DNA of 64,000 nt from Pseudomonas phage RWG: the sequence record KM411958.1; one strand, written 5' to 3'. The notes below the pieces were generated by a model. The model was not told the origin of the DNA. It saw nothing but the letters and a program-made list of their open reading frames with translations, and ran no database searches. The position numbers and the translations under genes are program-made. Positions 5,983-63,557 of this stretch are shown piece after piece. Numbering within the stretch: the stretch's first letter is position 1; the number at the start of each line of letters is the position of its first letter.

Positions 5983-5993
5983 AGGAGAATCCA

Positions 5994-12787: not shown

Positions 12788-12959
12788 CCGGAAGTCCTAC
12801 TGGGCTTCCTTCAACCATATGATCAAGCACTTCGGAGGTATCGAAGAAGCTGAGGCTGCTATCGCTTCCGGCAAGGCTGTCTATGGGAAACCAACAGTGC
12901 CCAAGGGTTACATCTTGGGCACCGACATCAAAGGCATGTACGTGCTGCATAAGGAGTAA
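12759..12959 (+). CDS. hypothetical small protein
   Basis: 66-aa ORF overlapping the deaminase end. Start uncertain. Confidence 0.35.
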   Translation: MSRKPCSLTDRKSYWASFNHMIKHFGGIEEAEAAIASGKAVYGKPTVPKGYILGTDIKGMYVLHKE

Positions 12960-12961
12960 TC

Positions 12962-13360
12962 ATGGCGAAGAAAGCCAAACTGAAAGCTGATTGGACTCCA
13001 GGAAAGTTGGGTCATGCGCCTGTCAACGGACGGTATTTCTTCGTCAACCGTGAGACACGCATGACCCACACCTGGACTATCGGTCAACTGCCTGTGCCCG
13101 AAGGGTATGAGCAGGTGACCATGCAAGAATACGACAGCTTCCGTAAGTTCAACGGAACCTTGTCGAAGAAGAAACTCATGGCCTTTATCCGAGGGGAAGC
13201 CAAGTGTTCGAAGGACGCAGGAAAGAAATCCGAGAGCGAATCGAAGCCCGCTGCAAAGTCGAAGACACGGGCTTCATCCTCGACGGTAAGCCAAGTCCCT
13301 GCCACCTCTGGCAAGGCCCGGATTCAGGTACGGGCAGGGGTGGTGGTTACGGTCGCATGA
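12962..13360 (+). CDS. hypothetical protein (C-terminal extent uncertain; overlaps HNH gene)
   Basis: Begins MAKKAKLK. The last ~50 codons overlap the HNH ORF in another frame and look low-complexity. Confidence 0.4.
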   Translation: MAKKAKLKADWTPGKLGHAPVNGRYFFVNRETRMTHTWTIGQLPVPEGYEQVTMQEYDSFRKFNGTLSKKKLMAFIRGEAKCSKDAGKKSESESKPAAKSKTRASSSTVSQVPATSGKARIQVRAGVVVTVA

Positions 13361-13548
13361 GCCTGGACGGCCAGACAGTGGCCGTCCACATCGTCATGTT
13401 CACCAACTACTTCGGCTATGTGCCGGGTAAGAAACAGATCGACCATCTCTGCGGGCAGCGACTGTGCTGCAACCCCGCCCATCTGGAGATGGTCACCCAC
13501 CTCACCAATCAAAAACGTCGCGCTAAACGCGCCAAGTCCAAGGAGTAA
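13204..13548 (+). CDS. HNH homing-type endonuclease
   Basis: CHLWQGPDSGTGRGGGYGRMSLDGQTVAVHIVMF...HLCGQRLCCNPAHLE is a typical HNH_3 zinc-binding core. Confidence 0.75.
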   Translation: MFEGRRKEIRERIEARCKVEDTGFILDGKPSPCHLWQGPDSGTGRGGGYGRMSLDGQTVAVHIVMFTNYFGYVPGKKQIDHLCGQRLCCNPAHLEMVTHLTNQKRRAKRAKSKE

Positions 13549-13551
13549 TCC

Positions 13552-16068
13552 ATGCAGGTAACTCATCAGAAAGACTACGCCACTCACGTTGTGATAGGCG
13601 GCAAGCAAGCAATTTCCATGGGCATCAGTGATGACCCGGCCTTCTTCCAAGTTCTGTCGAGTTCCCTGTACACGGACAAGATCCTTGCCGTTGTTCGGGA
13701 AACTCTCTGCAACGCCTTCGATGCCCACAAGATGGCGGGCATCGAGAAAGAGACTCCGGTCGAGATCACCCTCAAGGACGACGAATTCGTCATCCGTGAC
13801 TTCGGCCCTGGTATACATCCCGACGACGTGGGCACCATTTACGGTGTATACGGCGGCTCCACCAAGAAGCACGACGGCACCCAGACTGGTGGTTTTGGTT
13901 TGGGGTGCAAGTCCCCCTTCGCCTACGTGGACAACTTCCAGGTGACCATTCACCACGAAGGCAAGACCAACGTCTACCGCATGCAGAAAGCCTCCATCCA
14001 GAACGGCGGACGACCGGCGATCACTCCTGTGGTCACGGACATTCCTACCGACCAGACCGGTCTGGAAGTACGGATCAACATCAAGAACGAAGACGTACGT
14101 CGATTCGGTACGCTGATTCGCCGTATCGTGGCCAACGCCGAGATGCTGGCCAACTTCAACGGGGTGAAGCTGCCCACCCTGCCCTTCTCCCAGGTGACCG
14201 AAGACTGGTCCATCGCTACCGAGCAGGTGCTCGAATACAACGGCCACATCATCTGTGTCCGCTATGGTGATGTCATCTATCCTGTAGAGCGGGATGAGTT
14301 CATCGCCGAGGTGTACGATCCTGTGCACAAGTTCGTGAACTCTCTGCCTGGCAACGTCAACGTGCTGGTGCTACAAGCCAAACCGAACTCGGTGTCGATC
14401 ACACCGTCTCGGGAAGCGCTGTCCATGGAAGACCACACCCGCAAGACTCTTCTTCAGCTGCTCAACAAATTCCTCCGTGCAACGCGGAACATCAAAAAGG
14501 AACGCAGCGACATCCTGGCACAGTCCTGCGAAGAACTGGTGCAGGCCAGGAAAGGTGCGATGGTGCAGCCCGAAGAAGTAAATGCTAATCGTGTGCTCGT
14601 GAGTTCCATGCGTGGGTCTAAGCTTTGTACCAAGGGACTCATGTCTACCATGGAAGAGGTTGGCTTGAGCCAGCTGTACCATTCGAATAGCCGGGATGAA
14701 AAGGAGAACTTCAAGACCCTGCTGCAACAGCTTTCCCTCATCGGAAAGCAGCCGCGAAACCAAGGAAACACCCTGTACCCTTCGCTCATCCGGCTGCTGA
14801 AGAAGGTTGGGATGGCAGCTGCCTACCATCACTACGATAGCGCCACCTTCGAGAACCTCACGAAGTTCCGGAAGGATTCCTGGCAGGCCCTGGCAGTACG
14901 CAAGTGGGGCCAGAAGCACCTGGTTTCCAAGCTGTTGCCTCTGATCCACGAAGAAGGGCTGTGCCCCACTCGGCTGATCTGGTACGGCGCTGGTCGTCAC
15001 CTGCACAACGGGGATTCTGTTCGGAACTACAACACCCACAATGGGTATCCGTTGGTTTCGTACTGGTCGAAGAATCCTATGTCCTATGTGCCACTGTTCC
15101 GTCGCTGTATTGTCCTGACGCACAGCCGTCGTGACATCCATAGCCGTGTGGAGGATCTCGACGAGTGGGTAGGTGGTTACAGTGCTGACGACTCTCTCAT
15201 CGCTTACGTGGTTCCGCGTAGCGTGAAGAAGGTGGAGGAAGCCAGGAAAGCCCTGAGTACTCTGAAGGGCTGGGAAGTACTGGACCTGACCAAGGAAGCT
15301 GAGGTAATCGAGTACGACTCGAAGATCAGTGCTGTCCCAGTCGTGTCCAAGCCAAAGAAGAAGGGCTATCCGATGCTCTCGGCTTGTCATAGCAACGGCA
15401 TATTCTCCCTGGAGATGGCACGTACTGAGAACGTAGCTCGGGTGGAGAATCCAGCTTACTACGTACGCCTCAACACCAAGAGCGACTACTACGTGCGTAA
15501 GTGTGTTCGTGGTTTGGACAAGACTTGCTCTGCCTACCTGCTGAAGAACTACGGCAACTTGGGTGCAGTCGTGTACAACGAAACCCAGGAAACCAACATG
15601 GAGAAGAAGGGCATCAAAAGTGCTCGTGACTTCCTCCTGGAAAAGTTCCTGGAAGAGGCGAACAAACCTGAGTTCATCAAGGCTTGCTCGCTGCGCTACG
15701 ACATGCTGGTTCAGGTTACAAAGGATTCGGACCAAGTAGACCTGGTTCGTACCATGATGGCGGTCAAAGAATGTCGTGATGACTTCAAGCTGCCTGAGCC
15801 GGAAACAGCTGATGCTGAGAACTTGCTCAATACCATGTGTGCTATGGACCCCAGGTTCTTCACTGAAGACCAGAAGGTAGCCTTGGGCAAGATAGCGGAA
15901 AAGATCAAGGCTGTTCCGGGCGATAAGAAAGTGCTTGGCATGCTGAAGAAGATCGCAGGAGCACCATTGATTACACTTCTGAACATCTCAGAAGTACGTG
16001 CTGCTTTACGCGATAAGAAGACTGTCGCTTCGACAGTCAAACTACTGAAAACAGCTATTCGTGGCTGA
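13552..16068 (+). CDS. rIIA: rIIA protein (N-terminal GHKL ATPase fold)
   Basis: Colinear with T4 rIIA. [32 protein letters not shown] matches T4 [40 protein letters not shown] matches [25 protein letters not shown] matches [33 protein letters not shown] matches IAPSREALSLDDRTRK. Confidence 0.9.
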   Translation: [838 protein letters not shown]

Positions 16069-17905: not shown

Positions 17906-18130
17906 ATGGACTACTACTTGTTGTACCTGGCTTTGGGTGCCGCTTGGTTCTTCATAGCCATCGGCGATGTCTACAAGGTGCCGCTTAACATTGCCTTCAG
18001 CAGGCAGTTCACACCGTCTATCATCGTCTCTCTCAGCTTCTTCCTCACCTTCTTGTTCTACCTGTTCCTGTGGCCTATCGGTGTAATCACCAGCATTTGG
18101 CTACGGATGACCAAGAAGTCAACTACCTGA
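17906..18130 (+). CDS. small membrane protein (2 TM; holin-like candidate)
   Basis: Hydrophobic 74-aa product with a charged C-terminus. GGAG RBS. Confidence 0.5.
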   Translation: MDYYLLYLALGAAWFFIAIGDVYKVPLNIAFSRQFTPSIIVSLSFFLTFLFYLFLWPIGVITSIWLRMTKKSTT

Positions 18131-32479: not shown

Positions 32480-32845
32480 ATGAAGGTCCGGGAACTGCTC
32501 GATTCGTTGAAGCGGCAGTTGAGCTACTGCACGAACCCGCAACAACGCGAACGGTTGCTGGACCACACCTTACGCATCCCTGTCCTGAGCCCCGGTACTG
32601 TCGGGGCGAGGCCATCTGTGGATGTGCTGAGTGTGGTTCCTGGCTTCGATTGGGATGACGGTTCGATGTTCTGTGAACCCAATTCCGACATCAAGCTGAC
32701 CGTACTGACCCCTGAAGAAGTGAAGACCATCATGGCGAGCTACAGCAAGGGGACATCTTGGTTTGCCTACCAGGAAACCAAGAAGCTACGGGAAGAAATC
32801 AACCGGCTGAAGAAACAGCTGGAGCTACTCGGAGGTAGCGAATGA
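32480..32845 (+). CDS. hypothetical protein
   Basis: 121 aa. Confidence 0.5.
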   Translation: MKVRELLDSLKRQLSYCTNPQQRERLLDHTLRIPVLSPGTVGARPSVDVLSVVPGFDWDDGSMFCEPNSDIKLTVLTPEEVKTIMASYSKGTSWFAYQETKKLREEINRLKKQLELLGGSE

Positions 32846-33285
32846 AAGTCAACCCGCAAGACGTGAAGAACATGATCGTGGAAGAGTCTTTCACGATCCT
32901 TCCCAACGGACTGACCACCGTATGCCAGCTTACCCTGGTCAACGGTTGGACGGTCACTGGGCAGTCATCCTGTGTGGACCCCGATGAATTCGATGCCGAG
33001 ATCGGAATCGAGATCGCTCGTCGTAACGCTGAAGACGAGGTGTGGAAGTTCGCAGGCTACGAACTCATGCAGAAGCTGCACAAGCGGCGGATGGGTGCGA
33101 AGGAGCGGCTGAAACTGGAACTCCAGGAGCTTCGTGAGCGGCAAGAAAGGTTGTTCAACCTGCTGCATACCGATGCTGCTGTTGACATCCCGGAGTACGC
33201 CTACAGCCTCCTGGAACAGCAGGAAACTGCTCAGCGTAACCTCATCGACATCCTCGAAGAGCGACTGAAGCAATGGCGCGACTGA
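32842..33285 (+). CDS. hypothetical protein
   Basis: ATGA overlap with the upstream gene. 147 aa. Confidence 0.5.
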   Translation: MKVNPQDVKNMIVEESFTILPNGLTTVCQLTLVNGWTVTGQSSCVDPDEFDAEIGIEIARRNAEDEVWKFAGYELMQKLHKRRMGAKERLKLELQELRERQERLFNLLHTDAAVDIPEYAYSLLEQQETAQRNLIDILEERLKQWRD

Positions 33286-33833
33286 ACGTAATCGGCATGG
33301 ACCCCAGTATGAGCAACTGGGGACTAGCCTGCGGTCAGTACGACACAACCTCCAACACCCTCAGCCTACGGCATATCGAAGTCATCAAGACTTCCAAGAC
33401 CAAGGACAAGCAGATTCGCGTCAACAGCGATGACTTGAACCGGTCTACCGAGATCACCACCAGAGTCATGGAGGTGATCAAGGAAGCCAACGTAATATTC
33501 GTGGAAGTGCCTGTAGGATCCCAGTCTGCCGCAGCCATGAAAAGCTACGGCATGTGCATTGGGATCCTCTCTGCCGTGAGAGCAAGCGGCAAGCCATTCC
33601 ACCTGCTCACCCCCACTGACCTGAAGGTCATGGCTTGTAACTCGAAGACAGCTTCGAAGGACGCCATGATCGAATGGGCGGTCAAGAAATACCCCCATCT
33701 CAACTGGCCCATGACCTCGAAAGGGGAAGTGATCGCCAGTAAGGCTGAGCACATGGCTGATGCCTGTGCAGCAGCCGAGTATGGGGTCTTCCATCACAAT
33801 GATTTCAAGCTGGCCCTGGCCATGCTCACTTAA
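33273..33833 (+). CDS. RuvC-like Holliday junction resolvase
   Basis: VIGMDPSMSNWGLA matches RuvC ILGIDPGSRVTGYGV. FVEVPVGSQSAAAMKSYGMCIGILSAV matches the second RuvC acidic motif. EHMADACAAAEYG matches ADAADALAIAI. Confidence 0.7.
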   Translation: MARLNVIGMDPSMSNWGLACGQYDTTSNTLSLRHIEVIKTSKTKDKQIRVNSDDLNRSTEITTRVMEVIKEANVIFVEVPVGSQSAAAMKSYGMCIGILSAVRASGKPFHLLTPTDLKVMACNSKTASKDAMIEWAVKKYPHLNWPMTSKGEVIASKAEHMADACAAAEYGVFHHNDFKLALAMLT

Positions 33834-33844
33834 AAGGAACCAAG

Positions 33845-34285
33845 ATGAAAATCGAACTGCAACAAGCCGAAGTCGCCGCTGGTATCGCTACCTACCTGAC
33901 CGCCAATGGCCTGAAAGCCGACGCTTCCCAGCTGACCATCTCCTTCCAGACCACCCGCAAGGGCGACGGCGGCATCGTGGCTTTCGTCGAAGTACCGGAA
34001 CTGGCCGTAGCCAGCCTGGTCGGCACCAAGGCACCGGTCGCTACCGAACCGCAGGTTGCGGAAGTGGCCGAGAAGCCGAAGAAGGCCGAGAAGAAAGTCG
34101 TCAACACCGAAGCGGCCGCCGGCCTGGCAGCTGCCGTTGCCGAATCCAAGGCGAGCGAAGAAGCAGTGCCGGTCGAAGTAGCTACCGAAGAGCCGGATCC
34201 GGTTACCGAGGTGGAAGCCAAGAAAGAAGAGCCGGCAGCCGAACAAGCAGCCCCGGCCAGCACCGGTGGTAGCCTCTTCAGCTAA
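33845..34285 (+). CDS. hypothetical Ala/Glu/Lys-rich protein ending in the same SLFS tail as the SSB-like protein
   Basis: C-terminus APASTGGSLFS versus GGGKPASLFS at the end of 31730-32476. Confidence 0.5.
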   Translation: MKIELQQAEVAAGIATYLTANGLKADASQLTISFQTTRKGDGGIVAFVEVPELAVASLVGTKAPVATEPQVAEVAEKPKKAEKKVVNTEAAAGLAAAVAESKASEEAVPVEVATEEPDPVTEVEAKKEEPAAEQAAPASTGGSLFS

Positions 34286-34296
34286 CACCTCTTCCA

Positions 34297-34320
34297 GGCC
34301 GATAGCCCCCGTAACAGGGG
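34297..34320 (+). terminator. hairpin GCCCCC-gtaaca-GGGGGC (terminator-like, no T-run)
   Basis: 6-bp G/C stem immediately after the stop codon. Confidence 0.35.
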
Positions 34321-34342
34321 GCTGTCTCTACCGGAGTAAACC

Positions 34343-34747
34343 ATGAAAGCCAAGTCGTATTACCTCCTGGCCTTCGCTGCACCCACAGGCGTAGGCACCG
34401 TATTCCAGTCGGCCATCCATGCTTTCGAGCAGGGCAAGAGCCACGACTTCACCGTACCACTCATCGCTCAGATCAAGGAGCGTAGCGGTATCGGTGCCAA
34501 CTCGATCATGCTCAGTGTCTCCTTCCTGGGAACCATGACCGAAGCTGAGTTCAACCCACCGTTCCGTCCTGGAATGGATGCCACCGTTGCATACCTCGAA
34601 GGTGTGCGTGCTGGCTTGGAGAACTCCGAGAAAGACAACCCGTACCCCACTGGTTCGGTGGAGGCAGCAGACTACCGTAATGGTCGTATTTCTGGCTTCA
34701 GCATGCGTGAAGGCCAACAGCCTCCGCAGGATCACAGTCCACAGTAA
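34343..34747 (+). CDS. hypothetical protein
   Basis: 134 aa. Confidence 0.5.
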   Translation: MKAKSYYLLAFAAPTGVGTVFQSAIHAFEQGKSHDFTVPLIAQIKERSGIGANSIMLSVSFLGTMTEAEFNPPFRPGMDATVAYLEGVRAGLENSEKDNPYPTGSVEAADYRNGRISGFSMREGQQPPQDHSPQ

Positions 34748-35000
34748 AAAGAGCATTCCCTTTTGTCCGCTGATACGTCACTACCTTCATTCCTTTTCTG
34801 AAGTTCTCGTAATGGTTACGGGTAGGCGGACTCTTTTTAGTGTTGACTGCCATGTCAGCCTCCTGTAAGTTGAGAACCATGAAGTGGAGACAACCTCTCA
34901 CCACCTCATCGGCCCCTGGATACCACTACCAAGTAATCCTTGTCCCACTCGATCCAAGGGGCCGTTTACCACCTCCCTAATCCAATGCCTCCATAGACTA

Positions 35001-35027
35001 AGCCAGCTACCTCAGCTGGCTTTCTTA
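35001..35027 (+). terminator. hairpin AGCCAGCT-acctc-AGCTGGCT followed by TTCTTAT
   Basis: 8-bp stem and T-rich tail, inside a 400-bp non-coding region. Confidence 0.45.
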
Positions 35028-35052
35028 TGTCTATTGACCCAGTAGGCATAAG

Positions 35053-35120
35053 GGAGTGCTCTGGCCCGTTGCAACGGGTACACCCACCACCCCGCAATGG
35101 GGTCCAGACCAGAGCACTCC
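35053..35120 (+). other. 68-nt structured element: 12-bp stem GGAGTGCTCTGG/CCAGAGCACTCC enclosing hairpins CCCGTTGCAACGGG and CCCC-gcaat-GGGG (candidate ncRNA/leader)
   Basis: Read directly. Located ~30 nt upstream of the 35153 start codon. Confidence 0.4.
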
Positions 35121-35152
35121 ATCCCTTACACCCAACCAGAAGGAACTTCGCT

Positions 35153-35389
35153 ATGGGCGATTTGAGCAAAGCGTGCATGCTGAAAAACATGCATGTCACC
35201 CGTGTGCTACACCTCATCGAAATGCGCAACAAGCTGACGAACACCCTACGGGACAATGCCACCGACGACGGTATGGCTACCCTGGAAATGTTCGACGCTG
35301 CCCTGAAGCAGGAAACCGACCGCTTCCTCCGCGCTTTCCGTGCGGTAGGCAACGAGAACATCAACGAGATCAAGAAGGCGGCCGAATGA
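35153..35389 (+). CDS. hypothetical protein
   Basis: 78 aa. Confidence 0.45.
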   Translation: MGDLSKACMLKNMHVTRVLHLIEMRNKLTNTLRDNATDDGMATLEMFDAALKQETDRFLRAFRAVGNENINEIKKAAE

Positions 35390-35703
35390 GCTTGGTAGAT
35401 GCGGTAGTAGAAGCCAAGCGCCAGGGCGTACAGCACAGCCTTCGTGGCAGCAACTACGAGTCCGACATCCCGCCGAGCCTGAAGGCTCTACTGGATGAAG
35501 CACTGCGACTGGCCAACGAGCACAGCATCCCGCTGTACTGGTCTGCCAGCCTGCCCAATGGTGTGATGACTCGTGCTGCTCTCGGCGAGAAGGGCGAGAA
35601 CATCCACATCCAGTACCTCATGTCCTATGCGGCTGCGGTACAAGATCCTGCCCTGGCACAAGAAGTTGTGCAGAAAGGTATGGCCTTCCTCGACAAGAAG
35701 TAA
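35386..35703 (+). CDS. hypothetical protein
   Basis: ATGA overlap with the upstream gene. 105 aa. Confidence 0.5.
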   Translation: MSLVDAVVEAKRQGVQHSLRGSNYESDIPPSLKALLDEALRLANEHSIPLYWSASLPNGVMTRAALGEKGENIHIQYLMSYAAAVQDPALAQEVVQKGMAFLDKK

Positions 35704-35712
35704 GGAGTCCGT

Positions 35713-35916
35713 ATGGGAGTCCTGAAAGGATTGTTCGGCGCTGGGGCACTGGCAGGAGCCGTGATAGGCATTCTATTCATTGGCTTCGTATTCAGCTGGA
35801 TCTTCAGAATACTCGGCGTGGTAGTAGCACTGTTCATCGTGCTACTCATCCTCTGCTGGGTAGGATGGGAATGGTTGAAGTATTGCTTCAGCAGGAAGAA
35901 GGAGGGGGAGCAATAG
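35713..35916 (+). CDS. small membrane protein
   Basis: 67 aa with two hydrophobic helices. Confidence 0.5.
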   Translation: MGVLKGLFGAGALAGAVIGILFIGFVFSWIFRILGVVVALFIVLLILCWVGWEWLKYCFSRKKEGEQ

Positions 35917-35930
35917 CTCCCCCTTTCTTC
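35904..35930. terminator. bidirectional terminator between convergent genes
   Basis: GGGGGAGC-aat-AGCTCCCCC followed by TTTCTTC. Lies between the plus-strand gene end and the vRNAP stop. Confidence 0.6.
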
Positions 35931-35931: not shown

Positions 35932-38900
35932 TTACAGGTTCATCAGACCTTTGATACCTGGTAGTTCGCTCAAGCTGGATGGCCAGGACCACGGACCAGA
36001 CTGGAACGGGTTGTGCCCGATCCGGTTGATCCAAGAGCTATCCATTACCGATTGCAAGCCACTCACAAAGTGGTTAGCAGCAACCAGAGCCAGTGCACGA
36101 GCAGGCTTCTGACGGATCAAGCGAGCGATCACCTTCTGCACACGCAGATAGTACTTGGTGAACATCACCAGACCCATGTCGTTCATGAACTGAAGACCAC
36201 GGCCAGAAGGCAAGTCGTAGTTGATGAACGATTCTTCAGCCTGACGCAGAGCATCAGCTTTACTCAGCGGATCTTTAGCACGAGTAGTCAGGTGCTCATA
36301 CAGAGCGTATCGAGCAACCAGATCACTCAGCTGAGTGGTTTGGCTCAGGAACTTGTACACAGCAGTGTCGTGAGTCATGTAGACCTGACGACCAATGTCC
36401 CGAACCAACTTCGGCAGCTTGCTGGTGTACTTCTCAGCCTTCTTCTGGAGCAGAGACTTGTAGCTGTACTGCGAGTCATCAGCTTCCACATCTTCTACGA
36501 TGGTCGGCATCAGTCCGGCATCTACCAGCGGCTTGATCGGGTTGCGACTCAGGCGATCCATCAGCACAGCGATCTCATCCCGTACAGCTTGCTCACCGGA
36601 AGGCAGGTAACCAACGTCAAGTGCACGCTGAAGCTGGATAAGCTTCTTGTTGTCCTGACGATACTGGAGAGCAGCCTTGATGCCGGTAGCGTGAGCACGT
36701 ACACCTTCGGCCAAGCCAACACCTTCCCAAGCCAACAGAGTCATGTTCGAGACAATGTTACCTACGAGAGTGGTGATGTTCTTGATTACCAGGATGTCCT
36801 TGGCTTCACGGACCAGTTCCTGCATCACATCCTCAGCACGACCAATGCGAAGTGCAGCCTTCTCACCCAGGATGGCTTCAGCAACTCGTACAAGCACCTT
36901 CTCAGCGATGTTGCGTTCGTCTTCTGCCAAACCAAACGGAGTAGTCAGACTGTACTTGCGATAACCCATGATCATGTTCAACTGATCAGCAGGGATCTGC
37001 ATGTTGTCGCTACCCCAAGTCTTGCGGATCTCACGCTTAGTGTTCTCCGGCAGCAGTTGGTACAACTCAAGCAGCTGAGGATCAGTGCTGTCCTTGCCTA
37101 CAACCAGGTAGCTGCTAGGACGGTTGGCGTAATCCTCGCGGAATTGGTCGTACATAGCACGAACAACGTCAGCGTTCTGGATTGCGGAGTCAACCTTGTC
37201 CACGATCTGACCTGCAAGAGTACCAAGCACCTGTTCCATGGAGTTATCACGATCCAGCAGACTGTCACGGTTGTGCTCAGTCATGGTATAGCGGTAGTCC
37301 ACGATGGCTCCATTCGGGTTCACCACAGGAGACACTCGGCCCGGCTTCTGCTGGCGAGGATCGTAGGAGCGATCACGCAGGAACATGTCACTCACATCCT
37401 GGGCAATGTTGCGCTTGATGGTAGTGATGGCGTTCTTCGCAGTTCCAGGAGCAGCCGACAGCATGTTGGTAGCCTGACGATCCACCTTGGTACCACGAGC
37501 ATGCACACCGGTGTAGCTCATCGCACCAGTCAGCAAGCCAACCTGACCACTACCACGACGGGTCACCAGAACCTTGTCGGATTCCAGACCAGCACGTTGG
37601 TCTACCTGCACGTCACCAGCAACAGCGTAGCCACGCTTCTGGAAGTAGGGCAGGTCACTGCGGTCTACGGCCAGCACTTCGATCTTGGAGTCGAAGATGT
37701 CCGGTACATAGCCATCGGTGTACAGACGTTCGGTGCCTTGGAACAGGGCATCCTTGGAGCGCTTACCCAAGCCATGGTGCATGGCCAGGATCAGATCCAC
37801 ACCGTTGCCATCGGTACGGTTGGATTCGGTCTTAAGCACTTCACGGGCACGGCTCTTCACCTGGGAACCCGAGTACTCCCACCCATAGACAGCTTGCAGC
37901 TGGTCCAGCAGTTCGATGGCTTTCGCACGATCTGCCTTGGAGGACTGGAGCACACGCTTGGTACCGAGCATGTCTGCGATGTTCGCACTGTTCAGCATCA
38001 GGTTCGGACTGACGTTGCCACCAATCACACGGTGGTAAGCCAAGTCCTTCACAGCACCCAGGTAATACTGACCATTCGGCAGTGCCAGCAGTTGGTCTTC
38101 GAGGTCTTTGCGGAGATTGGCGAACTCGCCATTGTCCAGAAGGACTTCCTTCAACCGATCCATACCCAGGGCTTCACGAAGGTTACCCATGTTGGTACGC
38201 AGGAAACCCTTGGTCAGTGCAGCACGGTCTTCAGTGCTCAGGTACTGACCGTTGTCCTTGAAGCCCTCATTGATCATCGCAGCGGTGTACTCGATGTGCT
38301 GCTTACGAGCCATCTCGTTGGACTTGGCTTGCTTGAACAAAGTGTGTGCAGCGAGGTTACCCTCGTGTGCCCCACGCATCTCGTTCACTACCTGCATGGC
38401 CATGCCGTGCTGGCTCTTGAAAGCGTTGTCACGGATGCGAGTGATACCGTCCAGGACCAAGCCAACACGCTCATTGGTGATGGTGCTGATGGTCTTACCA
38501 GCTACCCGAACGAAGGGGCTGTCCGACTGAGTGAAGAAGGTCGATTCAGCGATCCGGTTCAGGTTGTCCTTGATGGCTTCCCCGGTGTTTGCCAGGGCAG
38601 TTTCCACCTGGTCCAGGGCACCCACTTTCTGGTCAGCCAGACGTCCACGACGCTTGGCTTCGATGTCCACCAGACGATCCACCAGGGTGAACAGTCGGCT
38701 CTCAGCCACCTCACCCGGACGAGTCTTGTCGTGCAGCTGACCCAGGCGGGTAAGCAAACGTCGGAACATCTCAACCAGACGAGTAGCCAGTGGCATACCA
38801 GCCAAGGACTTCTCGCTGCTACGGGTAGTGAACTGAAGCAGGTTCGCTACTTCTTGGCTCGCTACACCCAGGGCAGCAAAGCGGCTCAGGTAGTCGCTAC

Positions 38901-41900
38901 GGGAACCAACACGCTCAGGGCGGAACAGGAAGTTGTACTTCTCCTGTGCCACATCCTTCTCTGCTTGGGTGGCTTGGTCCCAATCACCAGCGAAGAAGTC
39001 CTTAGCAGACAAGCGATACTTGGCTTCACGCCAGAGGTTCTCCAGGCTGCTGCGGATGAAGATTCCATCGTTGCTGTTCAGGGTGGTGGCCACAGTAGCC
39101 TCGACCTGCTCCAGCACGTAGGCTTCCTGCGGGCTGACAATGAACGCCGAAGCCAATGCCTGAGAGGCGAAGGGCAGGCGGCCAGTGTCCAGAGCCTTCA
39201 GGACAGCATCAGTGGTGGTCAGTGCTTGGCCACGAGCAACCTCGTTGCGGAATGCACCCATGGGACCGTAAAGCTCGGTGACGATGCTGTTCAGGACAGA
39301 CTTCAGCTTGTTGCTGTGAGCCACGGTAAGCGGGGTCTTCTCGCTCTCCAGGGCATTGAAGATCTGTTCACTGCTCATCGCGTTGACCTGATCTACAGCG
39401 TCCTCGTACTTCAGGGTCAGGTCGCTACGTTTGGCCATCTGTGCAGCAGCCTCAGCGAACAAGCCAGAGGTATTGCTGATCACCAGAGCCATGGCATTGG
39501 TATCGGACGGCTTGGTGTCACGGAACAGCAGGGCAGTCAGGTTACGAATGAACCGCAGCAGCCCGTCAGTGAAACCAGCATCACGCTTACCAGCAGGCAT
39601 CTCCAGCTTCTTCAGGACTTCTTCCTGGAAGCCCTGGTTGGTCATGCCCCAGCTAACAAGCTCATGCACGTTCGACACAGCGTTGGCGTACTTGGCAGAC
39701 AGACCACCGTTCTTGCTCAGCATGTCGCTAGCACGGGAACGGATCATCTCCAGGTCGTTGACCATACGCCAGGGCATGGAATCGTAGTTGGAGTTGGCTT
39801 GCTTCTTGTCCAGTTCACGCTGGATGGTACGGCCCAGGCTCACATGGAGCAGTTCGTGGGTCAGCATCTCTTCGGTGATGCCCGACTCGACGAACTCAGG
39901 ACTCTTCACATAGAGAGCTTCGAAGTTGCCCTGGGTTGCATACCAGCCACGAGCCTTGCTCACACCCTCGCCGATGGCACCGTCAGGGCCAGTGGTAGAG
40001 GTGACCAGCTTGACCGGTACATCTTCGCGGATGGACCGGAGAGCAGCACGCAGTACCTGCTTGCGGAACGGGTCATTGGTACGGGCTACCAGAGCCTCAG
40101 CCAGACCACGAGTGGTCAGGTCATTGGTTTCGGTCAGTAGATCCACCAGTGCTTGGTCAGACGGAGTTACCGGCTGACCAAGTTCACCCCATACCGAGGT
40201 CTTGGCACGGCTGTTCTGCTGGACAGCTTGGACTACCTCAGCCGCACGATCTTCCGGCAGAACTTCCTTGGCAGACTCCAAGCTCAGGTTGGATTTCTCC
40301 ATCACTTGGGCTACCTGCTGGATGTCCTGTTGCAGCTGACCCTCAGCCTTGATGCGGTCCATGGTGTTCAGCGTAGTAGCCGGAGCCAAGGACTGTACCG
40401 AGTCATTGCGGAGCGGCTTGCGAGCAGCAGGCTTGGCTTCACGAGGGGTAGCCTTCAGCTGGGCGTCGATAGCATCAGCCATCGTTTCCGCTTCAGGATT
40501 GAAAGTGCTACCGATCTCTTCACGAGCCTTCACAGCAGCGGCACGGTCAGCATCGGTGACGATGTAGCTACCGCCATCAGTGGCGTACTGACCCACTGCA
40601 CGCATGTTGGCCAGCATGTTCAGCTTGTCAGTATCAGCCTGTTCAGCGACGTGACGGATGCTGGCCAGCTGAGTAGAGACGGTGGTCTTCTGGCTTTCCA
40701 GGTACTTGCCGAACTGGTTTGCAACCTGCGGATCCTGTACCCACTTACTGAAGCCAGCAAGAGTACGCTCGAAGGTCGAAACCATCTCACTGGCTGCCGA
40801 GTAGTTCAGCATCAGCTTGAAGGTTTGCTCGTTCAGACGTTGGCCAGCAGCGTCCATACCCAGTACACCCACACCGTGAGCATCGTGGATGTTCAGGACA
40901 TCTTCACCCATCAGTGCATTGTGGGAGATGAACGAGTCACCTGCGTGGGTAGCAGTGATGAACGGAGCTACACCCGGACCTTCGTTGACGGTGGTCATGC
41001 CACTGGCACGGAAGCTCTTCACGGACTGCTTGCGGCCTTCCTCATCGGTGAACTCCAGAGGTTCAGCGAAGTGGACTTCCGAGCGGTACAGGGGAGAGTC
41101 GTTCAGTTCCCGACGAGTCTTCGCCATCAGCATCCCCGAATCCAGGTCACCACTAGCTTTCGAGAAAGCGGTGTGCAGGATCGGTTCCATGTCCTTCAAC
41201 TCGTTGCGGATCTGGTCGATCTGAGCACGAGTGAGGTCAGTAAAGGGCTGGCCATCATTGCCACGAGGCAGGTTGGCCGAAGCCAGTAGCTCATCACGGC
41301 GAGCCTGGAAGACAGCTTCGTACATCTGGAAAGCCATGTTCGCAGTCTTGTTGATGGTGTCACGGCGAGCGATGAAGACCTCGTAGGTATCGTTCAGTGC
41401 ACTCTCTACCTTGCTACCCAGCAGGTCATAGAAGGCAGCCTTGATGGCGGTCTGCTGGACCGGGGAGTAGACAGTATTCAGTGCTTGTTCGAAGCCCATG
41501 TCGGTAGCCCACAGCTGACGCTTGTCGCTGTTCTTCGAACCAATGAGGCTGTTCACAGCAGCGATCACTTTGGACAAGGCAGCTTGGTCACCAGCATTGG
41601 CAGCGTCTTCCATCTTGGAGTAGATGGTTTCGATGAAGGCATCAGCCATACCGCTGACAGCAGTCTTGGTGTTGGAACCAAACATCATTGCGGTCAGGGG
41701 CTTCTTGATGACGTTACGACCCTTGGACGATACACCGCCTTCCTCGTTGGTCAGCACACCAGTGATGACTTCCACAGAGGACAGCAGCGGGTCATTGCCC
41801 AGACGGTCCAGCACAGCCTTGATGGTACCCTCGTACAGGTCCAGGTTTCCCTGTGCCTTGTAGTCGTTGAACTGGGTGTACGGATCTTCCAGGCTGAAGA

Positions 41901-44900
41901 AACCACCCTGGTTCAGGGTATCGAAGCCCTTGGCACCGGACATCAGCAGGGACAGCATAGGACCGTTGGTCACGCCATCCACTTCGCCAAGCAGCTGGGT
42001 GGTGAAGGATTCAGCACCGTTCTCACGGGCGATCTTCTCTTGAGCCAGGGCTACCAAGCCATCCAAGCTGAAGAACTTCTCACCAGCTTCAGCCACGGCA
42101 GCCAGGATTGCGGACTCGTTGGCTACGGTGTCTTGAGCCTCACCACGCAGGATTTCAGCCAGGGCAGTTACACCAGCCTGGATCGCAGGGGTGTTCACCT
42201 TGCTGTCGTACTTGGCCAGCACTTTCGAAGTGTTGTTGCCCTCGGTCTTCACACCGAAGGACTCCAGTACGCGAAGCTTGAAGCTATCCATCTCTGCCTT
42301 GTTGGACAGATTGATGGTGTTCTCCCAGCCTTCCATTGCCAGCATGTGGCGATGCACCTTGCTGGTCTGCGGGTTGATCATGTTGGCAGTCAAGCCAACA
42401 CGCTGAGGCTTCCACACGCTCCGGTCGAAGTACAGCGGCTGTTCCAAGCCAAGGTCAGAAACCTCCTGGATCCGACCAAAGAACTCGTTGAAGTTGTCGA
42501 TCTGGCGTACCAGTCCATCGTTCTTGGCTTGGGTGCCAGCACGGTTGGCCTTGTGTACGAAACCACCTTCAACATCTACAGCACCAGCGATGGTGGCCAA
42601 TGCGTTCTCGGACAGGTTGCCCCAGACTTGGAACATGTCCTGACGGAGACGCATGGGACGCTTGCCTGCATCGTACAGGATCTTGGCCAGTTCCTTGGGT
42701 ACCGGCTGCTGAGTACGCTTGGCGTTCTTCTGGGTGAAGGGTACCGGAGTGAAGCTCGGCTCAGTCTGACCTTCAGTCGAACCGAACAGCTTGGCCAGGA
42801 TGGACTGGCTTCCGGTATTGGCTTCACGGATCTGGCGAGCAACTGCACCCGGAACCAGCTTACCGTCTACACGCTCACTGACCGGGGTCAGGAAGTAGTG
42901 CTTGACGCGGGGGTTGGCCGGTTCATTGGAGTCCATCAGGGACTTCAGCTTGGCGTCGCTGACAGTGGTGATCTTTGCCACACCCATCTTCACCAGCAGA
43001 GCCAAGGCATGCTCACCCAGGGAAGCTTCCAGACGAGCACGCTCGTTCACAGGAGCATTCGGCAGGACTTCCAAACCAAGGACATCAACGATCTTGGCAC
43101 CCAGCTGGGAAGCTGCGGTGGCCTGGCGAGTACCTACGTTGCCCAGGACTGCATAGGCAGCTGGAGAGACTTCTTCATCAGCGTCCTTGCCCAGGATGGC
43201 ATTGATACCGGCATCGGTGTTCACCAGGTTGTTGGCAGCATCGATAGCCCAGTCGTACGCACCGTAGGCAATGGCGGTGGTCAGGTTCTCGTCCAGAGTA
43301 CCGTCAGCATTCACCAGGAACTGAGCATAGTCCCGGAAGTAGTAACGGCTGGCGTCACTGGTCTTCGAGGTGTATGGCTTCAGCGTTCGCTCGATGATCG
43401 GCTTGGCAGCACGTTGGAACTTCATGAACTGCTTGATGGCAGACTGTTGCTGACCAGTGAAGCTCTTCACACCAGCGAATTCAGCCATGCGGCCTTCACC
43501 AGTACGGATCTTGGTAGCGAAGTCTTTGACTACTACCAGAGGCTTCTGAGTGTCACCGTCATTGCGAGCCGGGGACTGCTGGAAGAAGGCGGAAACCAGA
43601 TTGGTAGTCTGATAGTTCTCAGCAGCAACTTCCTGACCACGCACAGCTTCACCCTCACGGATAGCCGTGAGTTCACCAGTTTCGGCCTCGGTAGCAGGTT
43701 CTGCCTGGATCGACTCGGTTTCACTGACTGGGACATCTTCAGTGACCTGAGCGATAGGCGCCTCTACCGAGGCCACCTCTTCAGCTACCTGTACGGGCGC
43801 TTCCTGTACAGGGGCAGCTTCTTGCACCACAGGGGCCGGACGAGCAATCGGACCAGCCTTGACCAGTTCACCCAGGGACTCAGCCGAGCGGGACAGTGCA
43901 GTGGCTTCCAGTGCTACAGCATCACGCAGCTTGAAAGAGCGGGCGGAGATCTCCAGACCACCAGCCGACTTCAGTTGGCGGGCAGTCATGGACTCCGGTG
44001 CTTCGGTCCAGTTGCCGGCTTCATCACGTACGATACGGATGGAGTTGTCGGTACCTTTGACCTGTTGATACGCAGCGTCGATGGCGTTGAACTTCGCCAC
44101 ACGACTGTCAGCGAAGGCACGCAGTTGGTCTACCTGACCAGCAGCTGCTTCTTCGTTGCCGTTCATCAGAGCCATACGCACAGCGTTACGGTACTGAGGC
44201 AGACCTTTGAAGCCATCACCACCAGACTCGATGTCGGTGCGTACACCGCTCAGACCCTTGAGTTCGTTGAGTGCAACCTGTGCTTCACTGAAGCTACGCA
44301 GGGATGCACGCTGCTCAGCGGTAAGGGTGTTGCTGGTGTCAGCCACCAGAGCATCTACCTGCTCCAGGCTTAGGGCATCCGGGTTGATCATGGTCAGGGT
44401 GACCAGACGCTCGGAGGCTTCTGGCTGGACAGCAGCTTCCTGAACCAGAGTCTCTACCTCGGCAGCCTTCGGAGCGGCTTCCACCTGGAAACGCTTGATG
44501 GCGTCACGAGTAGCGGTCAGTACCTGCTGAGCATCCTTCAGTTCCTTGGCTTGAGCCTGACGCTGCTCAGGAGTGATGTTGAGGATCTGCTCACGTACGC
44601 CGCTCAGGTTGGCCAGTTCTTCGTCCAGGCGGGCAACGGTAGCTTCATCAGCACCCTGCTTGGCCTGCTCACGTTGTTCGATGGCTTGCTCTACCTTGGC
44701 CAGACCTTCTTCACTGAACAGGACTTGTTCCTGCTCCAGCTGGGATACACGCTGGGCAGCTTCCTGCTCGATGGTGTCAGCCTGCTCCAGGGCACGGTCC
44801 TTGACCTCTTGGGTCACACCATCAGCCATGACTTGTTCCTGGAGAACTACCACTGCACCAGCAGGGTTATAGGACTCCGAGGTCACATCGGTCAGGGCAG

Positions 44901-46128
44901 AGATGTCGCCGGTTTCACGGGCAGCATTCACAGCTTCACGCGAAGCCAAAGCAGCCTCAGCACGGGTAGCACCAGAGCGGGCACCTACAGCAGCACGGCC
45001 ACCGATGTTCATGGTTCCGCCGACAGCAGCACCAATGGTTGCAGCTTCGACGATCTCTTCCAGGCTGGTGTCTTTCAGGTGAGCAACGTTCTCACCCCAG
45101 GTTTGGTAACCCTCGGTCACGCCTTCACGAGCGCTAGAACCAAGAGTAGAGCGGATCAAACCACCACCTTCACCACGGATACCACGCAGGATGCCAGCAT
45201 CGGCTACCTGCTCAGCTACCGCCAGTGAAGCAGCAGCAAGACCCATCTTCAAACGATCGTCAGCATCCGGCAGTTGGCCTTGGTTCTCGGCCTGATACTC
45301 AGTGATTCCTTCACGGTATTCATCCGAGGCGTAGCCCACGTTGGTAGCAGCACCCAGCACAGGGTTAGCGGCATAGGCCAGCATCTGCGGAGCGTTTTCC
45401 ACAGTGTACTCGCCGACTGCCAGCGGGTTGGTTGCCGATGCACCGATAGCGGTAGCAGCGGTCTGGCCGACACCGAGTGCACCTTGCACCAAGCCATCCA
45501 GAATCTCGCCACGGCTGAAGGACTCGCCTGCATTGCGGAGACGTTCTACGCCACCAGCAGTCGCATCAGCGATGTCGTCGCTCAGTTGGTCACGGCGAGT
45601 AGTGTCTACGATGCTCGACCAATCGAAGAACTTGTCCACGTTGGTAGAGAGCTTGCGGAGTTCATCCACACCTTGCATACGTTGCAGCATGGTCTGGTGA
45701 ACACCGTCGTCACCGGCAGCAGTCTGGCTCAGGATGGCTTCATCACCTTCCTGCATCTGGCCGGAGACGTAGCGGTTGTAGGCTTCGATGGCTTCGTTGG
45801 TTACACCAGCCTGACCCATGTCAGCAGCAGCGTTGATCGGCAGAGCAATCACGTCGCCGAGAGCACGGCCAGTACCGGATACGAAGGAAGCAGCAGCGTT
45901 GAGGATCTCAGTGCCAGCAGCACCGGGGGTGATACCCATCTTGCCGATGAGGGATTCTTCCACGTTGCGCTTCTTGCGCTCGCGGATGCCGTCGAGGTCG
46001 TAAGCCTTCTGCGAACCCTTCATGTCCAGGCCCACACTGGCAAAGTCCAGAGCGTCGAATGCCGGGGTAGCCCCGGCATTCGCCTCTTGACGATCCGACA
46101 GGAATTGATCCAAGTCGAAATCAGCCAT
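35932..46128 (-). CDS. virion-encapsidated giant RNA polymerase (N4 gp50-like vRNAP)
   Basis: 3398-aa ORF. Central VLNIHDAHGVG matches T7-like motif C (IHDSFGT). Size and position immediately upstream of the virion-protein block match the N4-like hallmark. Confidence 0.9.
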   Translation of the reverse strand: MADFDLDQFLSDRQEANAGATPAFDALDFASVGLDMKGSQKAYDLDGIRERKKRNVEESLIGKMGITPGAAGTEILNAAASFVSGTGRALGDVIALPINAAADMGQAGVTNEAIEAYNRYVSGQMQEGDEAILSQTAAGDDGVHQTMLQRMQGVDELRKLSTNVDKFFDWSSIVDTTRRDQLSDDIADATAGGVERLRNAGESFSRGEILDGLVQGALGVGQTAATAIGASATNPLAVGEYTVENAPQMLAYAANPVLGAATNVGYASDEYREGITEYQAENQGQLPDADDRLKMGLAAASLAVAEQVADAGILRGIRGEGGGLIRSTLGSSAREGVTEGYQTWGENVAHLKDTSLEEIVEAATIGAAVGGTMNIGGRAAVGARSGATRAEAALASREAVNAARETGDISALTDVTSESYNPAGAVVVLQEQVMADGVTQEVKDRALEQADTIEQEAAQRVSQLEQEQVLFSEEGLAKVEQAIEQREQAKQGADEATVARLDEELANLSGVREQILNITPEQRQAQAKELKDAQQVLTATRDAIKRFQVEAAPKAAEVETLVQEAAVQPEASERLVTLTMINPDALSLEQVDALVADTSNTLTAEQRASLRSFSEAQVALNELKGLSGVRTDIESGGDGFKGLPQYRNAVRMALMNGNEEAAAGQVDQLRAFADSRVAKFNAIDAAYQQVKGTDNSIRIVRDEAGNWTEAPESMTARQLKSAGGLEISARSFKLRDAVALEATALSRSAESLGELVKAGPIARPAPVVQEAAPVQEAPVQVAEEVASVEAPIAQVTEDVPVSETESIQAEPATEAETGELTAIREGEAVRGQEVAAENYQTTNLVSAFFQQSPARNDGDTQKPLVVVKDFATKIRTGEGRMAEFAGVKSFTGQQQSAIKQFMKFQRAAKPIIERTLKPYTSKTSDASRYYFRDYAQFLVNADGTLDENLTTAIAYGAYDWAIDAANNLVNTDAGINAILGKDADEEVSPAAYAVLGNVGTRQATAASQLGAKIVDVLGLEVLPNAPVNERARLEASLGEHALALLVKMGVAKITTVSDAKLKSLMDSNEPANPRVKHYFLTPVSERVDGKLVPGAVARQIREANTGSQSILAKLFGSTEGQTEPSFTPVPFTQKNAKRTQQPVPKELAKILYDAGKRPMRLRQDMFQVWGNLSENALATIAGAVDVEGGFVHKANRAGTQAKNDGLVRQIDNFNEFFGRIQEVSDLGLEQPLYFDRSVWKPQRVGLTANMINPQTSKVHRHMLAMEGWENTINLSNKAEMDSFKLRVLESFGVKTEGNNTSKVLAKYDSKVNTPAIQAGVTALAEILRGEAQDTVANESAILAAVAEAGEKFFSLDGLVALAQEKIARENGAESFTTQLLGEVDGVTNGPMLSLLMSGAKGFDTLNQGGFFSLEDPYTQFNDYKAQGNLDLYEGTIKAVLDRLGNDPLLSSVEVITGVLTNEEGGVSSKGRNVIKKPLTAMMFGSNTKTAVSGMADAFIETIYSKMEDAANAGDQAALSKVIAAVNSLIGSKNSDKRQLWATDMGFEQALNTVYSPVQQTAIKAAFYDLLGSKVESALNDTYEVFIARRDTINKTANMAFQMYEAVFQARRDELLASANLPRGNDGQPFTDLTRAQIDQIRNELKDMEPILHTAFSKASGDLDSGMLMAKTRRELNDSPLYRSEVHFAEPLEFTDEEGRKQSVKSFRASGMTTVNEGPGVAPFITATHAGDSFISHNALMGEDVLNIHDAHGVGVLGMDAAGQRLNEQTFKLMLNYSAASEMVSTFERTLAGFSKWVQDPQVANQFGKYLESQKTTVSTQLASIRHVAEQADTDKLNMLANMRAVGQYATDGGSYIVTDADRAAAVKAREEIGSTFNPEAETMADAIDAQLKATPREAKPAARKPLRNDSVQSLAPATTLNTMDRIKAEGQLQQDIQQVAQVMEKSNLSLESAKEVLPEDRAAEVVQAVQQNSRAKTSVWGELGQPVTPSDQALVDLLTETNDLTTRGLAEALVARTNDPFRKQVLRAALRSIREDVPVKLVTSTTGPDGAIGEGVSKARGWYATQGNFEALYVKSPEFVESGITEEMLTHELLHVSLGRTIQRELDKKQANSNYDSMPWRMVNDLEMIRSRASDMLSKNGGLSAKYANAVSNVHELVSWGMTNQGFQEEVLKKLEMPAGKRDAGFTDGLLRFIRNLTALLFRDTKPSDTNAMALVISNTSGLFAEAAAQMAKRSDLTLKYEDAVDQVNAMSSEQIFNALESEKTPLTVAHSNKLKSVLNSIVTELYGPMGAFRNEVARGQALTTTDAVLKALDTGRLPFASQALASAFIVSPQEAYVLEQVEATVATTLNSNDGIFIRSSLENLWREAKYRLSAKDFFAGDWDQATQAEKDVAQEKYNFLFRPERVGSRSDYLSRFAALGVASQEVANLLQFTTRSSEKSLAGMPLATRLVEMFRRLLTRLGQLHDKTRPGEVAESRLFTLVDRLVDIEAKRRGRLADQKVGALDQVETALANTGEAIKDNLNRIAESTFFTQSDSPFVRVAGKTISTITNERVGLVLDGITRIRDNAFKSQHGMAMQVVNEMRGAHEGNLAAHTLFKQAKSNEMARKQHIEYTAAMINEGFKDNGQYLSTEDRAALTKGFLRTNMGNLREALGMDRLKEVLLDNGEFANLRKDLEDQLLALPNGQYYLGAVKDLAYHRVIGGNVSPNLMLNSANIADMLGTKRVLQSSKADRAKAIELLDQLQAVYGWEYSGSQVKSRAREVLKTESNRTDGNGVDLILAMHHGLGKRSKDALFQGTERLYTDGYVPDIFDSKIEVLAVDRSDLPYFQKRGYAVAGDVQVDQRAGLESDKVLVTRRGSGQVGLLTGAMSYTGVHARGTKVDRQATNMLSAAPGTAKNAITTIKRNIAQDVSDMFLRDRSYDPRQQKPGRVSPVVNPNGAIVDYRYTMTEHNRDSLLDRDNSMEQVLGTLAGQIVDKVDSAIQNADVVRAMYDQFREDYANRPSSYLVVGKDSTDPQLLELYQLLPENTKREIRKTWGSDNMQIPADQLNMIMGYRKYSLTTPFGLAEDERNIAEKVLVRVAEAILGEKAALRIGRAEDVMQELVREAKDILVIKNITTLVGNIVSNMTLLAWEGVGLAEGVRAHATGIKAALQYRQDNKKLIQLQRALDVGYLPSGEQAVRDEIAVLMDRLSRNPIKPLVDAGLMPTIVEDVEADDSQYSYKSLLQKKAEKYTSKLPKLVRDIGRQVYMTHDTAVYKFLSQTTQLSDLVARYALYEHLTTRAKDPLSKADALRQAEESFINYDLPSGRGLQFMNDMGLVMFTKYYLRVQKVIARLIRQKPARALALVAANHFVSGLQSVMDSSWINRIGHNPFQSGPWSWPSSLSELPGIKGLMNL

Positions 46129-63273: not shown

Positions 63274-63557
63274 GAGCTAGGGGAAAGGGATTGGTTTGGG
63301 GAGATGGAAGTGATTTGGGTTATGGGAAATTTCATCATGTACTTGTGATTGCAGTACTTCAGTCTGCGGCTCTCCAAAACCGGTTATCCCCCCGGTACCT
63401 CTTGAGTTTTGGAATTCCCGCGCTACCTACCCCACCTTGTTTAACTCTACTTCTACCCAATCATCTGTCTGTACTTCTAGATCAAGAGAAGCCTTCGGCT
63501 GTGCTGTGGATTGATCCTGTGTCACCACAACCATTCTCACTACTCTGGAGTACTACC

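Follow-up and report, generated by a model that had tools for sequence, protein, structure and literature searches.

A predicted late non-coding RNA transcription unit in a Litunavirus genome, counterpart of the small-RNA locus of phage LUZ7

The gap between orf69 and orf70 of the Pseudomonas phage LUZ7 has been described as an unusual late "transcription hotspot" with putative small RNAs (sRNAs), sRNA1-3 (Putzeys et al., 2022; PMC9163698; bioRxiv 10.1101/2022.03.18.484859). Here we analyzed the corresponding gap in a stretch of 64,000 nucleotides (nt) of Pseudomonas phage RWG (KM411958.1), referred to below as the window. This gap is 405 nt long and is bounded by a + strand open reading frame (ORF) at 34343-34747 and by an annotated coding sequence starting at 35153, in agreement with the gene boundaries 34747 and 35153 proposed in an earlier note made from the sequence alone. 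According to the published map and its supplementary tables (PMC9163698), the late promoter PL13 of LUZ7 has its transcription start site (TSS) at 42780(+) with 16,209.8 reads per million (RPM), is the strongest among the 33 late promoters of that phage and the fourth overall, and is classed as the primary TSS of orf70. Transcription termination sites (TTS) were mapped at 42741(+) (T46), 42911(+) (T47), and 43010(+) (T48). T47 is intrinsic, has a termination efficiency (TE) of 0.57-0.59, was confirmed in vivo by a terminator trap and is among the nine best terminators. T48 is not predicted to be intrinsic, and its TE rose from 0.44 at 10 min to 0.88 at 20 min, a doubling that coincides with the dominance of host-polymerase transcripts from PL13 at 20 min. 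The transcription units (TUs) starting at PL13 are TU55 (131 nt, to T47), TU56 (230 nt, to T48), and the read-through mRNAs TU57 and TU58, which run into orf70-72. A processed species without a TSS of its own was also reported at the hotspot, and all TSS and TTS mapped in the gap lie on the + strand, with none on the minus strand (PMC9163698). Our literature searches found no functional follow-up study of the LUZ7 hotspot RNAs.

The locus in the window is the Litunavirus counterpart of this published LUZ7 sRNA/leader locus, the phenomenon having already been noted in the sister genus. We interpret the gap as a compact late non-coding RNA transcription unit, counterpart of the PL13-T47-T48 "sRNA" locus, with a probability of about 0.7; expression in the window phage and involvement of Rho are what we infer. 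This interpretation supports the earlier note, which had a phage small RNA and a structured 5' leader or attenuator among its proposals for the region, the homologous LUZ7 gap being documented as such (PL13, TU55-58). The window belongs to Litunavirus, N4-like phages of Pseudomonas aeruginosa. Over 34300-35750 it shares 99.9-100% identity with Pseudomonas phages phi176 and PEV32, and 95-98% with about 60 further Litunavirus genomes. In the sister genus Luzseptimavirus (LUZ7, KPP21, and others), homologous genes flank a gap of equal length, and the gap of the window occupies the orf69-orf70 intergenic position of LUZ7, with a gp69-like gene before it and orf70-72-like genes after it, upstream of the convergent gene for the virion RNA polymerase (vRNAP). 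The proteins flanking the gap are 57-58% identical between the window and LUZ7. Features were transferred to the window by an alignment of 16 relatives (Table 1). On the + strand these are, in order, a terminator hairpin, a promoter, an untranslated body that is rich in C and carries hairpin A, an intrinsic terminator, hairpin B, and a 68-nt rod; the first two and hairpin B were new with respect to the earlier note. The three structured elements of that note are all present and fold far better than shuffled sequences.

Table 1. Features predicted in and next to the gap, in window coordinates
Feature	Position	Strand	Basis
T46-like long-range terminator hairpin, closing the upstream middle operon	34745-34839	+	inverted repeats; folds of window and LUZ7
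Sigma-70-type late promoter, PL13 homolog (-35 TTGACT 34843-34848, 17-nt spacer, -10 TAAGTT 34866-34871)	34843-34871	+	sequence comparison
Predicted short RNA, about 149 nt, counterpart of LUZ7 TU55 "sRNA2" (131 nt)	34877-35025	+	alignment to LUZ7 TSS 42780 and TTS 42911
Hairpin A (element 1 of the earlier note), 12 base pairs (bp), bulged A, loop of about 30 nt	34910-34964	+	folding
Single-stranded C-rich, G-poor linker, core of a rut-like C>G tract (about 34880-35000)	34965-34999	+	composition; minimum free energy (MFE) fold
T47-like intrinsic terminator (element 2 of the earlier note)	35000-35035	+	terminator scan
Hairpin B, 13 bp, 3-nt loop	35024-35052	+	inverted repeat; folds
68-nt element (element 3 of the earlier note)	35053-35120	+	inverted repeat; folding; alignment
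T48-like 3' end without a U-tract, predicted for the long RNA (34877 to about 35126; about 250 nt)	35121-35127	+	LUZ7 T48, TU56
5' untranslated region with ribosome-binding site (RBS) GAAGGAA (about 35142-35148) and first small ORF	35128-35389	+	phi176 and LUZ7 annotation
Three small ORFs downstream of the gap	35153-35389, 35386-35703, 35713-35916	+	phi176 and LUZ7 annotation

The window and LUZ7 share the position of the locus, the -35 block, the stem and tail of the intrinsic terminator, hairpin B, a nearly identical 68-nt element, and the overall fold. They differ between TSS and terminator, where the RNA bodies cannot be aligned (25-50% identity), in the -10 box (TAAGTT in the window, CATAGT in LUZ7), and in the lengths of the two RNAs, predicted at about 149 and about 250 nt in the window versus 131 and 230 nt in LUZ7. 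The predicted RNA 34878-35127 folded with z = -8.0 and LUZ7 TU56 with z = -6.6, and the same succession of helices appeared in the independent folds. Identity to LUZ7 was 70-100% per 20-nt bin along 35020-35120, against 25-50% along 34840-35000 and 63% in the whole 13-kb comparison. Variable columns in the 3' domain were concentrated in unpaired positions (17/31, versus 14/92 for paired ones; p = 6e-5), and the single-stranded parts of the RNA were the least conserved.

By analogy with LUZ7, host RNA polymerase would start at about 34877 late in infection, and the intrinsic terminator would end about 60% of the transcripts as an RNA of about 150 nt. Transcripts that read through would gain hairpin B and the rod; most of them would end about 6 nt past the rod, giving an RNA of about 250 nt, and a minority would continue as mRNA for the three small ORFs, which would be reached by read-through only. 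The 68-nt element would define and stabilize the 3' end on the RNA and, together with the terminator, would constitute a tandem attenuator of the downstream ORFs. This second end would most likely come about in two steps: Rho-dependent termination, or else a pause on the C-rich leader, and then trimming of the RNA by a 3' exonuclease as far as the GC-rich stem of 12 bp. We favor this route since the end has no U-tract, the leader is untranslated and C-rich, T48 is non-intrinsic and its TE doubled at 20 min. An untranslated C-rich, G-poor tract, as expected for a Rho-type mechanism, is present upstream of the putative release site, and no conserved ORF was found there.

The 68-nt element, whose 12-bp outer stem had been recognized in the earlier note, has arms (35053-35064 and 35109-35120) of 12 nt that are 100% complementary and 44 nt apart, and it folded at -39.1 kcal/mol (z = -6.1; none of 200 shuffles was as good). 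Both the MFE fold and the RNAalifold consensus gave a rod made of the 12-bp stem, a second stem of 8 bp (35065-35072 with 35094-35101), a 7-nt bulge on the 3' side (GUCCAGA, 35102-35108), and a small apical hairpin of 4 bp. According to these models, the element most likely continues as a rod above the basal stem. The three-way junction put forward in the earlier note was 2.2-3.7 kcal/mol less stable than the rod in three variants; its two small inner hairpins are one possible fold, but neither the minimum-energy one nor the consensus. Compensatory pairs were found for neither rod nor junction, and hairpin 1 of the junction needs a register shift in LUZ7. When 11 distinct variants of the two genera were compared, no change was seen in the bulge, the basal stem, or the greater part of the second stem, apart from two mismatches that each affected a single sequence; the changes observed in the element were four wobble-compatible single changes and two single-isolate mismatches. 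Compensated arms in relatives, which the earlier note had named as a check, do occur in the upstream terminator hairpin and not in the near-invariant 68-nt element.

Hairpin B adjoins the 68-nt element without a linker. Because the U-rich terminator tail serves as its 5' arm, hairpin B can form only in the read-through RNA. Its stem is invariant save for one change from G.U to A-U, and its loop varies. Directly past the 68-nt element the sequence is AUCCCUU; in LUZ7, T48 lies 6 nt past the stem of the LUZ7 copy of the element, and by analogy the element would be the 3'-terminal structure of the long RNA. A GC-rich hairpin followed by a U-tract, as in intrinsic terminators, was found at 35000-35035 and not at the 68-nt element. 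The near-invariance of hairpin B and the rod, beyond what the stabilization of an end needs, points to an additional role in which a protein or RNA partner would recognize their sequence. The 68-nt element is present in a single copy in the window, and no repeated family was found within the phage.

The 3' end of the short RNA would be expected at about 35025. Hairpin A, the inverted repeat listed first in the earlier note, was confirmed as a 12-bp stem (34910-34921 with 34952-34964) with a bulged A at 34956. Its 66-nt fold had z = -4.07 (0/200 shuffles as good), and a 53-nt cut had z = -2.1 only. LUZ7 has an analogous stem of 13 bp, also with a bulged A, GGUGAACCAGAGG...CCUCUG(A)GUUCACC (z = -3.19), which cannot be aligned to that of the window, both the sequence and the position of the bulge being different. 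Within Litunavirus, one of 24 stem positions of hairpin A is variable versus 14 of 31 loop positions (p = 0.0007). The C/G ratio of the RNA body is 2.4-3.0 in 78-nt segments, within the top 0.1% of the 64-kb window, and that of the LUZ7 counterpart is 2.0-2.25 despite its unrelated sequence. Elsewhere in the window, 78-nt segments with C/G above about 2.7 were found only at about 17980-18070 and about 63380-63590 (+). The linker is unpaired in the MFE fold, variable at 12/35 positions within the genus, and 35 nt long in the window versus 14 nt in LUZ7. It contains a motif, CACCUCCCUAA (34970-34980), that forms an inverted repeat with the Shine-Dalgarno-like AAGGGAG (35049-35056) at the junction of hairpin B and the 68-nt element. 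This motif is variable within the genus, and it is anti-Shine-Dalgarno-like, resembling the 3' tail of the 16S rRNA. The terminator scan found the T47-like terminator, which coincides with the terminator-like hairpin of the earlier note, and placed its 9 bp between 35000-35008 and 35014-35022; they enclose a loop of 5 nt and are followed by a tail rich in U. The stem is conserved and the loop variable.

The putative promoter lies at the place homologous to PL13. The sequence upstream of the PL13 TSS is TTGACT-17-CATAGT; the -35 block is identical in both genera, and the exact arrangement TTGACT-N17-TAAGTT was present in 19/19 of the Litunavirus loci fetched. By analogy, the TSS of the window is placed at about 34877 (34875-34879).

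Upstream of the promoter, the T46-like hairpin has an outer stem in which an A-tract (34745-34752), including the TAA stop codon of the preceding ORF, pairs with a U-tract (34832-34839), and an inner stem of 7-10 bp (34765-34774 with 34822-34831). The LUZ7 sequence up to T46 ends ...GGACTCTTTTT, and the 3' end of the upstream operon would be expected near 34838. In the alignment used, three pairs of this hairpin changed on both sides, one of them appearing as C-G, A-U, or G-C. The alignment cells were paired in 96.3% of cases versus 88.7% in shuffles (0/500 reached the observed value) and 33-58% when the pairing was slid. The compensatory covariation of this hairpin is real. A long-range pairing of 34750-34772 with 35040-35062 was dropped, since it is not conserved in LUZ7. 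The gap also contains a direct repeat, AGAGCATTCC / AGAGCACTCC (34750-34759 and 35111-35120), through which its start could pair with 35040-35062 when transcription of the upstream operon reads through; this repeat is not conserved in LUZ7 either.

Several observations weigh against reading the gap as a late non-coding RNA unit of this kind. The transcript evidence comes from LUZ7 only, the Litunavirus RNAs being predictions, and Rho dependence and exonuclease trimming are inferences only. The -10 box TAAGTT (3/6) is weaker than that of LUZ7, and the promoter was absent from a simple promoter scan because its 8/12 consensus positions fall under the threshold of 9/12. The 68-nt element shows no compensatory changes, and two isolates carry single mismatches in the basal stem. 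For this element alone, the enrichment of variation in unpaired positions was not significant (p = 0.10). Its structure is therefore argued from thermodynamics and invariance. The minus strand of the element folds about as well (z = -4.96), so that it is only the LUZ7 data and the U-tracts that assign the strand. A pure end-stabilizing hairpin would not need an invariant loop and bulge. The identity of about 0.83 to LUZ7 over 100 nt corresponds to about the 98th-99th percentile of 100-nt segments, but parts of the vRNAP gene reach 0.85-0.89; on this basis the 68-nt element was rejected as the single most conserved stretch.

Among the alternatives, the one that survives best, though we regard it as rather unlikely, is that the short RNAs are by-products, and that the gap is a cis-acting leader whose tandem terminators dose the three downstream ORFs. 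The status of PL13 as primary TSS of orf70 and the extension of TU57 and TU58 to orf70-72 are consistent with it, as are the two terminators in series in the leader (TE of about 0.58 and 0.44-0.88), the lack of conservation of the short-RNA body between genera, and the absence of any complementarity of at least 13 nt to other phage transcripts in the window (the longest, 12 nt, is at chance level). It would however be odd to use the strongest late promoter and then terminate about 95% of its transcripts before the genes (read-through calculated as 0.42 x 0.12 at 20 min). Furthermore, hairpin B, the rod, and the bulge are nearly invariant while the neighboring proteins are only 57-58% identical between the genera, and the same alignment shows sequence drift in attenuators acting by structure only (the T46-like hairpin and hairpin A are examples).

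That invariance of loop, bulge, and stem sequence, common to two genera with the same host, would also be accounted for if hairpin B and the rod, which together form a 3' domain of about 100 nt and may correspond to LUZ7 "sRNA3", were a trans-acting RNA, for example a decoy, a sponge, or an anti-defence RNA, a proposal that we find a little more doubtful than the by-product one. Expression in LUZ7 is very high and late, a processed LUZ7 species lacks a TSS of its own, and the locus lies 460 nt downstream of the anti-defence hotspot gp58-61 of phage Ab09, although nearness to such genes is weak evidence. Against a trans-acting role, no partner is known, no Rfam family was matched, 185,579 species genomes contain no sense or antisense copy of the 20-nt core, and coordinates of sRNA3 were not found in the text and tables of Putzeys et al. 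(2022). Going one step further, we would mention as a speculation that this 3' domain is the functional core of the strongest late RNA of Migulavirinae, acting in trans by sequence-specific binding of a factor. If true, a trans-acting 3' domain, for instance a decoy against a host defence or RNA-processing protein, would represent a phage regulatory RNA of a new class.

An RNase III-type processing site is improbable. In phage T7, RNase III processing hairpins such as R1.1 lie between genes, and cleavage within the rod would likewise yield a small species and stabilizing hairpins. The rod, of about 20 bp with an asymmetric internal bulge of 7 nt and stacked on the 13-bp hairpin, resembles R1.1 in being an intergenic, irregular duplex with an asymmetric internal loop that could leave a protective 3' hairpin, and a processed species has been reported in LUZ7. 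Unlike in the T7 hairpins, the mapped LUZ7 end falls outside the duplex, 6 nt beyond the base of the stem and not inside the bulge. A DNA-level element (replication origin, cruciform, or protein-binding site) is very improbable: perfect 12-bp inverted repeats, invariance, and the similar folding of both strands also fit a DNA site, but in LUZ7 the region yields abundant transcripts whose defined ends fall at the structures, the tolerated changes of wobble type (G.U to G-C or A-U) are sensible only in RNA, and no repeats, iterons, or extra copies were found in the window. Nothing supported the replication signal that the earlier note had also mentioned.

The least probable reading, that the gap codes for protein through a minus-strand ORF of 51 amino acids (34853 down to 34698) with a good Shine-Dalgarno sequence (AGGAGG, 6 nt upstream of the ATG) or through a + strand extension from the ATG at 35027, was rejected, although both ORFs exist and are annotated in some GenBank records, because conservation is inconsistent with their frames between the two genera: LUZ7 keeps about 10 codons of the former before the frame changes although the DNA is conserved, the conserved 68-nt DNA is read in another frame in LUZ7 to give an unrelated peptide, no minus-strand TSS or TTS is mapped in the LUZ7 gap, and the ATG at 35027 lies inside the terminator tail. 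The 51-amino-acid ORF, probably not a gene, overlaps the stop codon of the + strand gene and has its "RBS" in the promoter spacer of the + strand. In Ab09 (ORF63), PaVOA, and vB_Pae575P-3, the downstream gene was started at the ATG at 35027 (35027-35389) and thus runs through the structured RNA, which is likely an over-extended annotation.

Homology searches confined the element to Migulavirinae. The blastn matches of the gap were in this subfamily only; IMG/VR pattern and protein-anchored scans returned the same isolates plus one metagenomic variant, and a metagenome scan added one near-identical contig. The 185,579 species genomes contained no copy of the arms, and a covariance model of the 3' domain found nothing in phage phCDa. 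Rfam 15 gave 0 matches at the gathering threshold, and within the gap only matches at chance level (E >= 0.8). The statement of the earlier note that the element is not a tRNA agreed with negative ARAGORN searches for tRNA and tmRNA in the window, LUZ7, and phCDa and with the lack of a match to Rfam RF00005. No convincing motifs of a CRISPR-repeat mimic, an Rsm-type (GGA-loop) RNA, or a CrcZ-like sponge were seen, on inspection by eye only. Antitermination of the HK022 put type was set aside, since the downstream LUZ7 terminator T50 stays 0.83-0.96 efficient.

The gene layout around the gap consists of long + strand gene blocks and the vRNAP gene (3,398 amino acids, minus strand, 35932-46128). 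The upstream neighbor, 34343-34747 (+), codes for a protein of 134 amino acids without assigned function that is confined to Migulavirinae; its residues 79-108 showed a sub-threshold match to ribosome modulation factor PF04957 (E = 0.047; 14.2 bits vs a cutoff of 27.9). For the three small ORFs downstream, every PHROGs match was to families of unknown function. Between the last of them and the convergent vRNAP gene, a GC-rich hairpin at 35903-35924 with T-rich runs on both strands constitutes a bidirectional terminator, the homolog of LUZ7 T50, which is experimentally strong and bidirectional. By coordinate transfer, about 32480-34285 corresponds to Ab09 gp58-gp61, among them Acb4-Sequestin, Bes1, and Bes2, a set that a 2026 preprint calls an anti-defence hotspot. 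Across the region of the gap, two GenBank records named "Photobacterium phage TEMp-D1/D2" (PP852687.1 and PP852688.1) match P. aeruginosa Litunavirus phages at about 96% identity, and their host assignment looks doubtful.

Therapy cocktails against P. aeruginosa make use of Litunavirus phages (PEV2, Ab09, DEV, LIT1, and others), whose GenBank records leave this gap blank or fill it with dubious ORFs. A testable RNA map is now given, with a start, two ends, and five helices, that separates a constrained part (35020-35120) from drifting parts. The strongest late promoter of a phage (LUZ7 PL13) being devoted to non-coding RNA makes deletion and complementation experiments worthwhile.

The locus can also be compared with its counterpart position in other N4-like phages. 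This slot follows the SSB/gp46/gp47 module and precedes both the final small ORFs and the convergent gene for the polymerase. In N4, the slot (the 1.5-kb gp47-gp48 gap, 12113-13632) holds four tRNA genes, which the RefSeq feature table consulted does not list. Eight tRNAs occupy it in Erwinia phage Frozen (6630-7550), on the strand of the replication genes, and Holyagarpour has tRNAs on the opposite strand. In G7C, the slot (about 6350-7537) is a long stretch without annotated genes, of which about 1.2 kb lacks a convincing ORF, and it contained no tRNA and no Rfam match. The slot of phCDa (5246-6257) is a 1-kb unannotated gap with a remnant like a tRNA 3' end and a rod-like hairpin of its own. 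The remnant, on the minus strand at about 5790-5820 (GGGGGTTCGATTCCCTCGGCATCCGCCA), resembles a tRNA T-arm and acceptor strand plus CCA, and neither ARAGORN nor Rfam calls anything there; the hairpin (minus strand, 5255-5354) is a rod of about 23 bp directly before the RBS of the next gene, which is not homologous to the ORFs of the window. In Presley, JWAlpha, and JSF3, the slot is compact. The window differs from the tRNA-bearing slots in having no tRNA fold (ARAGORN and the Rfam tRNA model were negative in the window, LUZ7, phCDa, and G7C). The slot may be a conserved place for small stable RNAs in N4-like phages.

In premature-termination leaders and Rho-dependent attenuators, a general bacterial mechanism, 3' ends are trimmed to a stable stem-loop. 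The locus of the window resembles these systems in its C-rich, G-poor untranslated leader and in the predicted non-intrinsic 3' end a few nt past a strong stem, and the LUZ7 data add that short RNAs accumulate while a minority of transcripts reads into the genes. It differs from them in that its sequence conservation exceeds what a generic roadblock needs.

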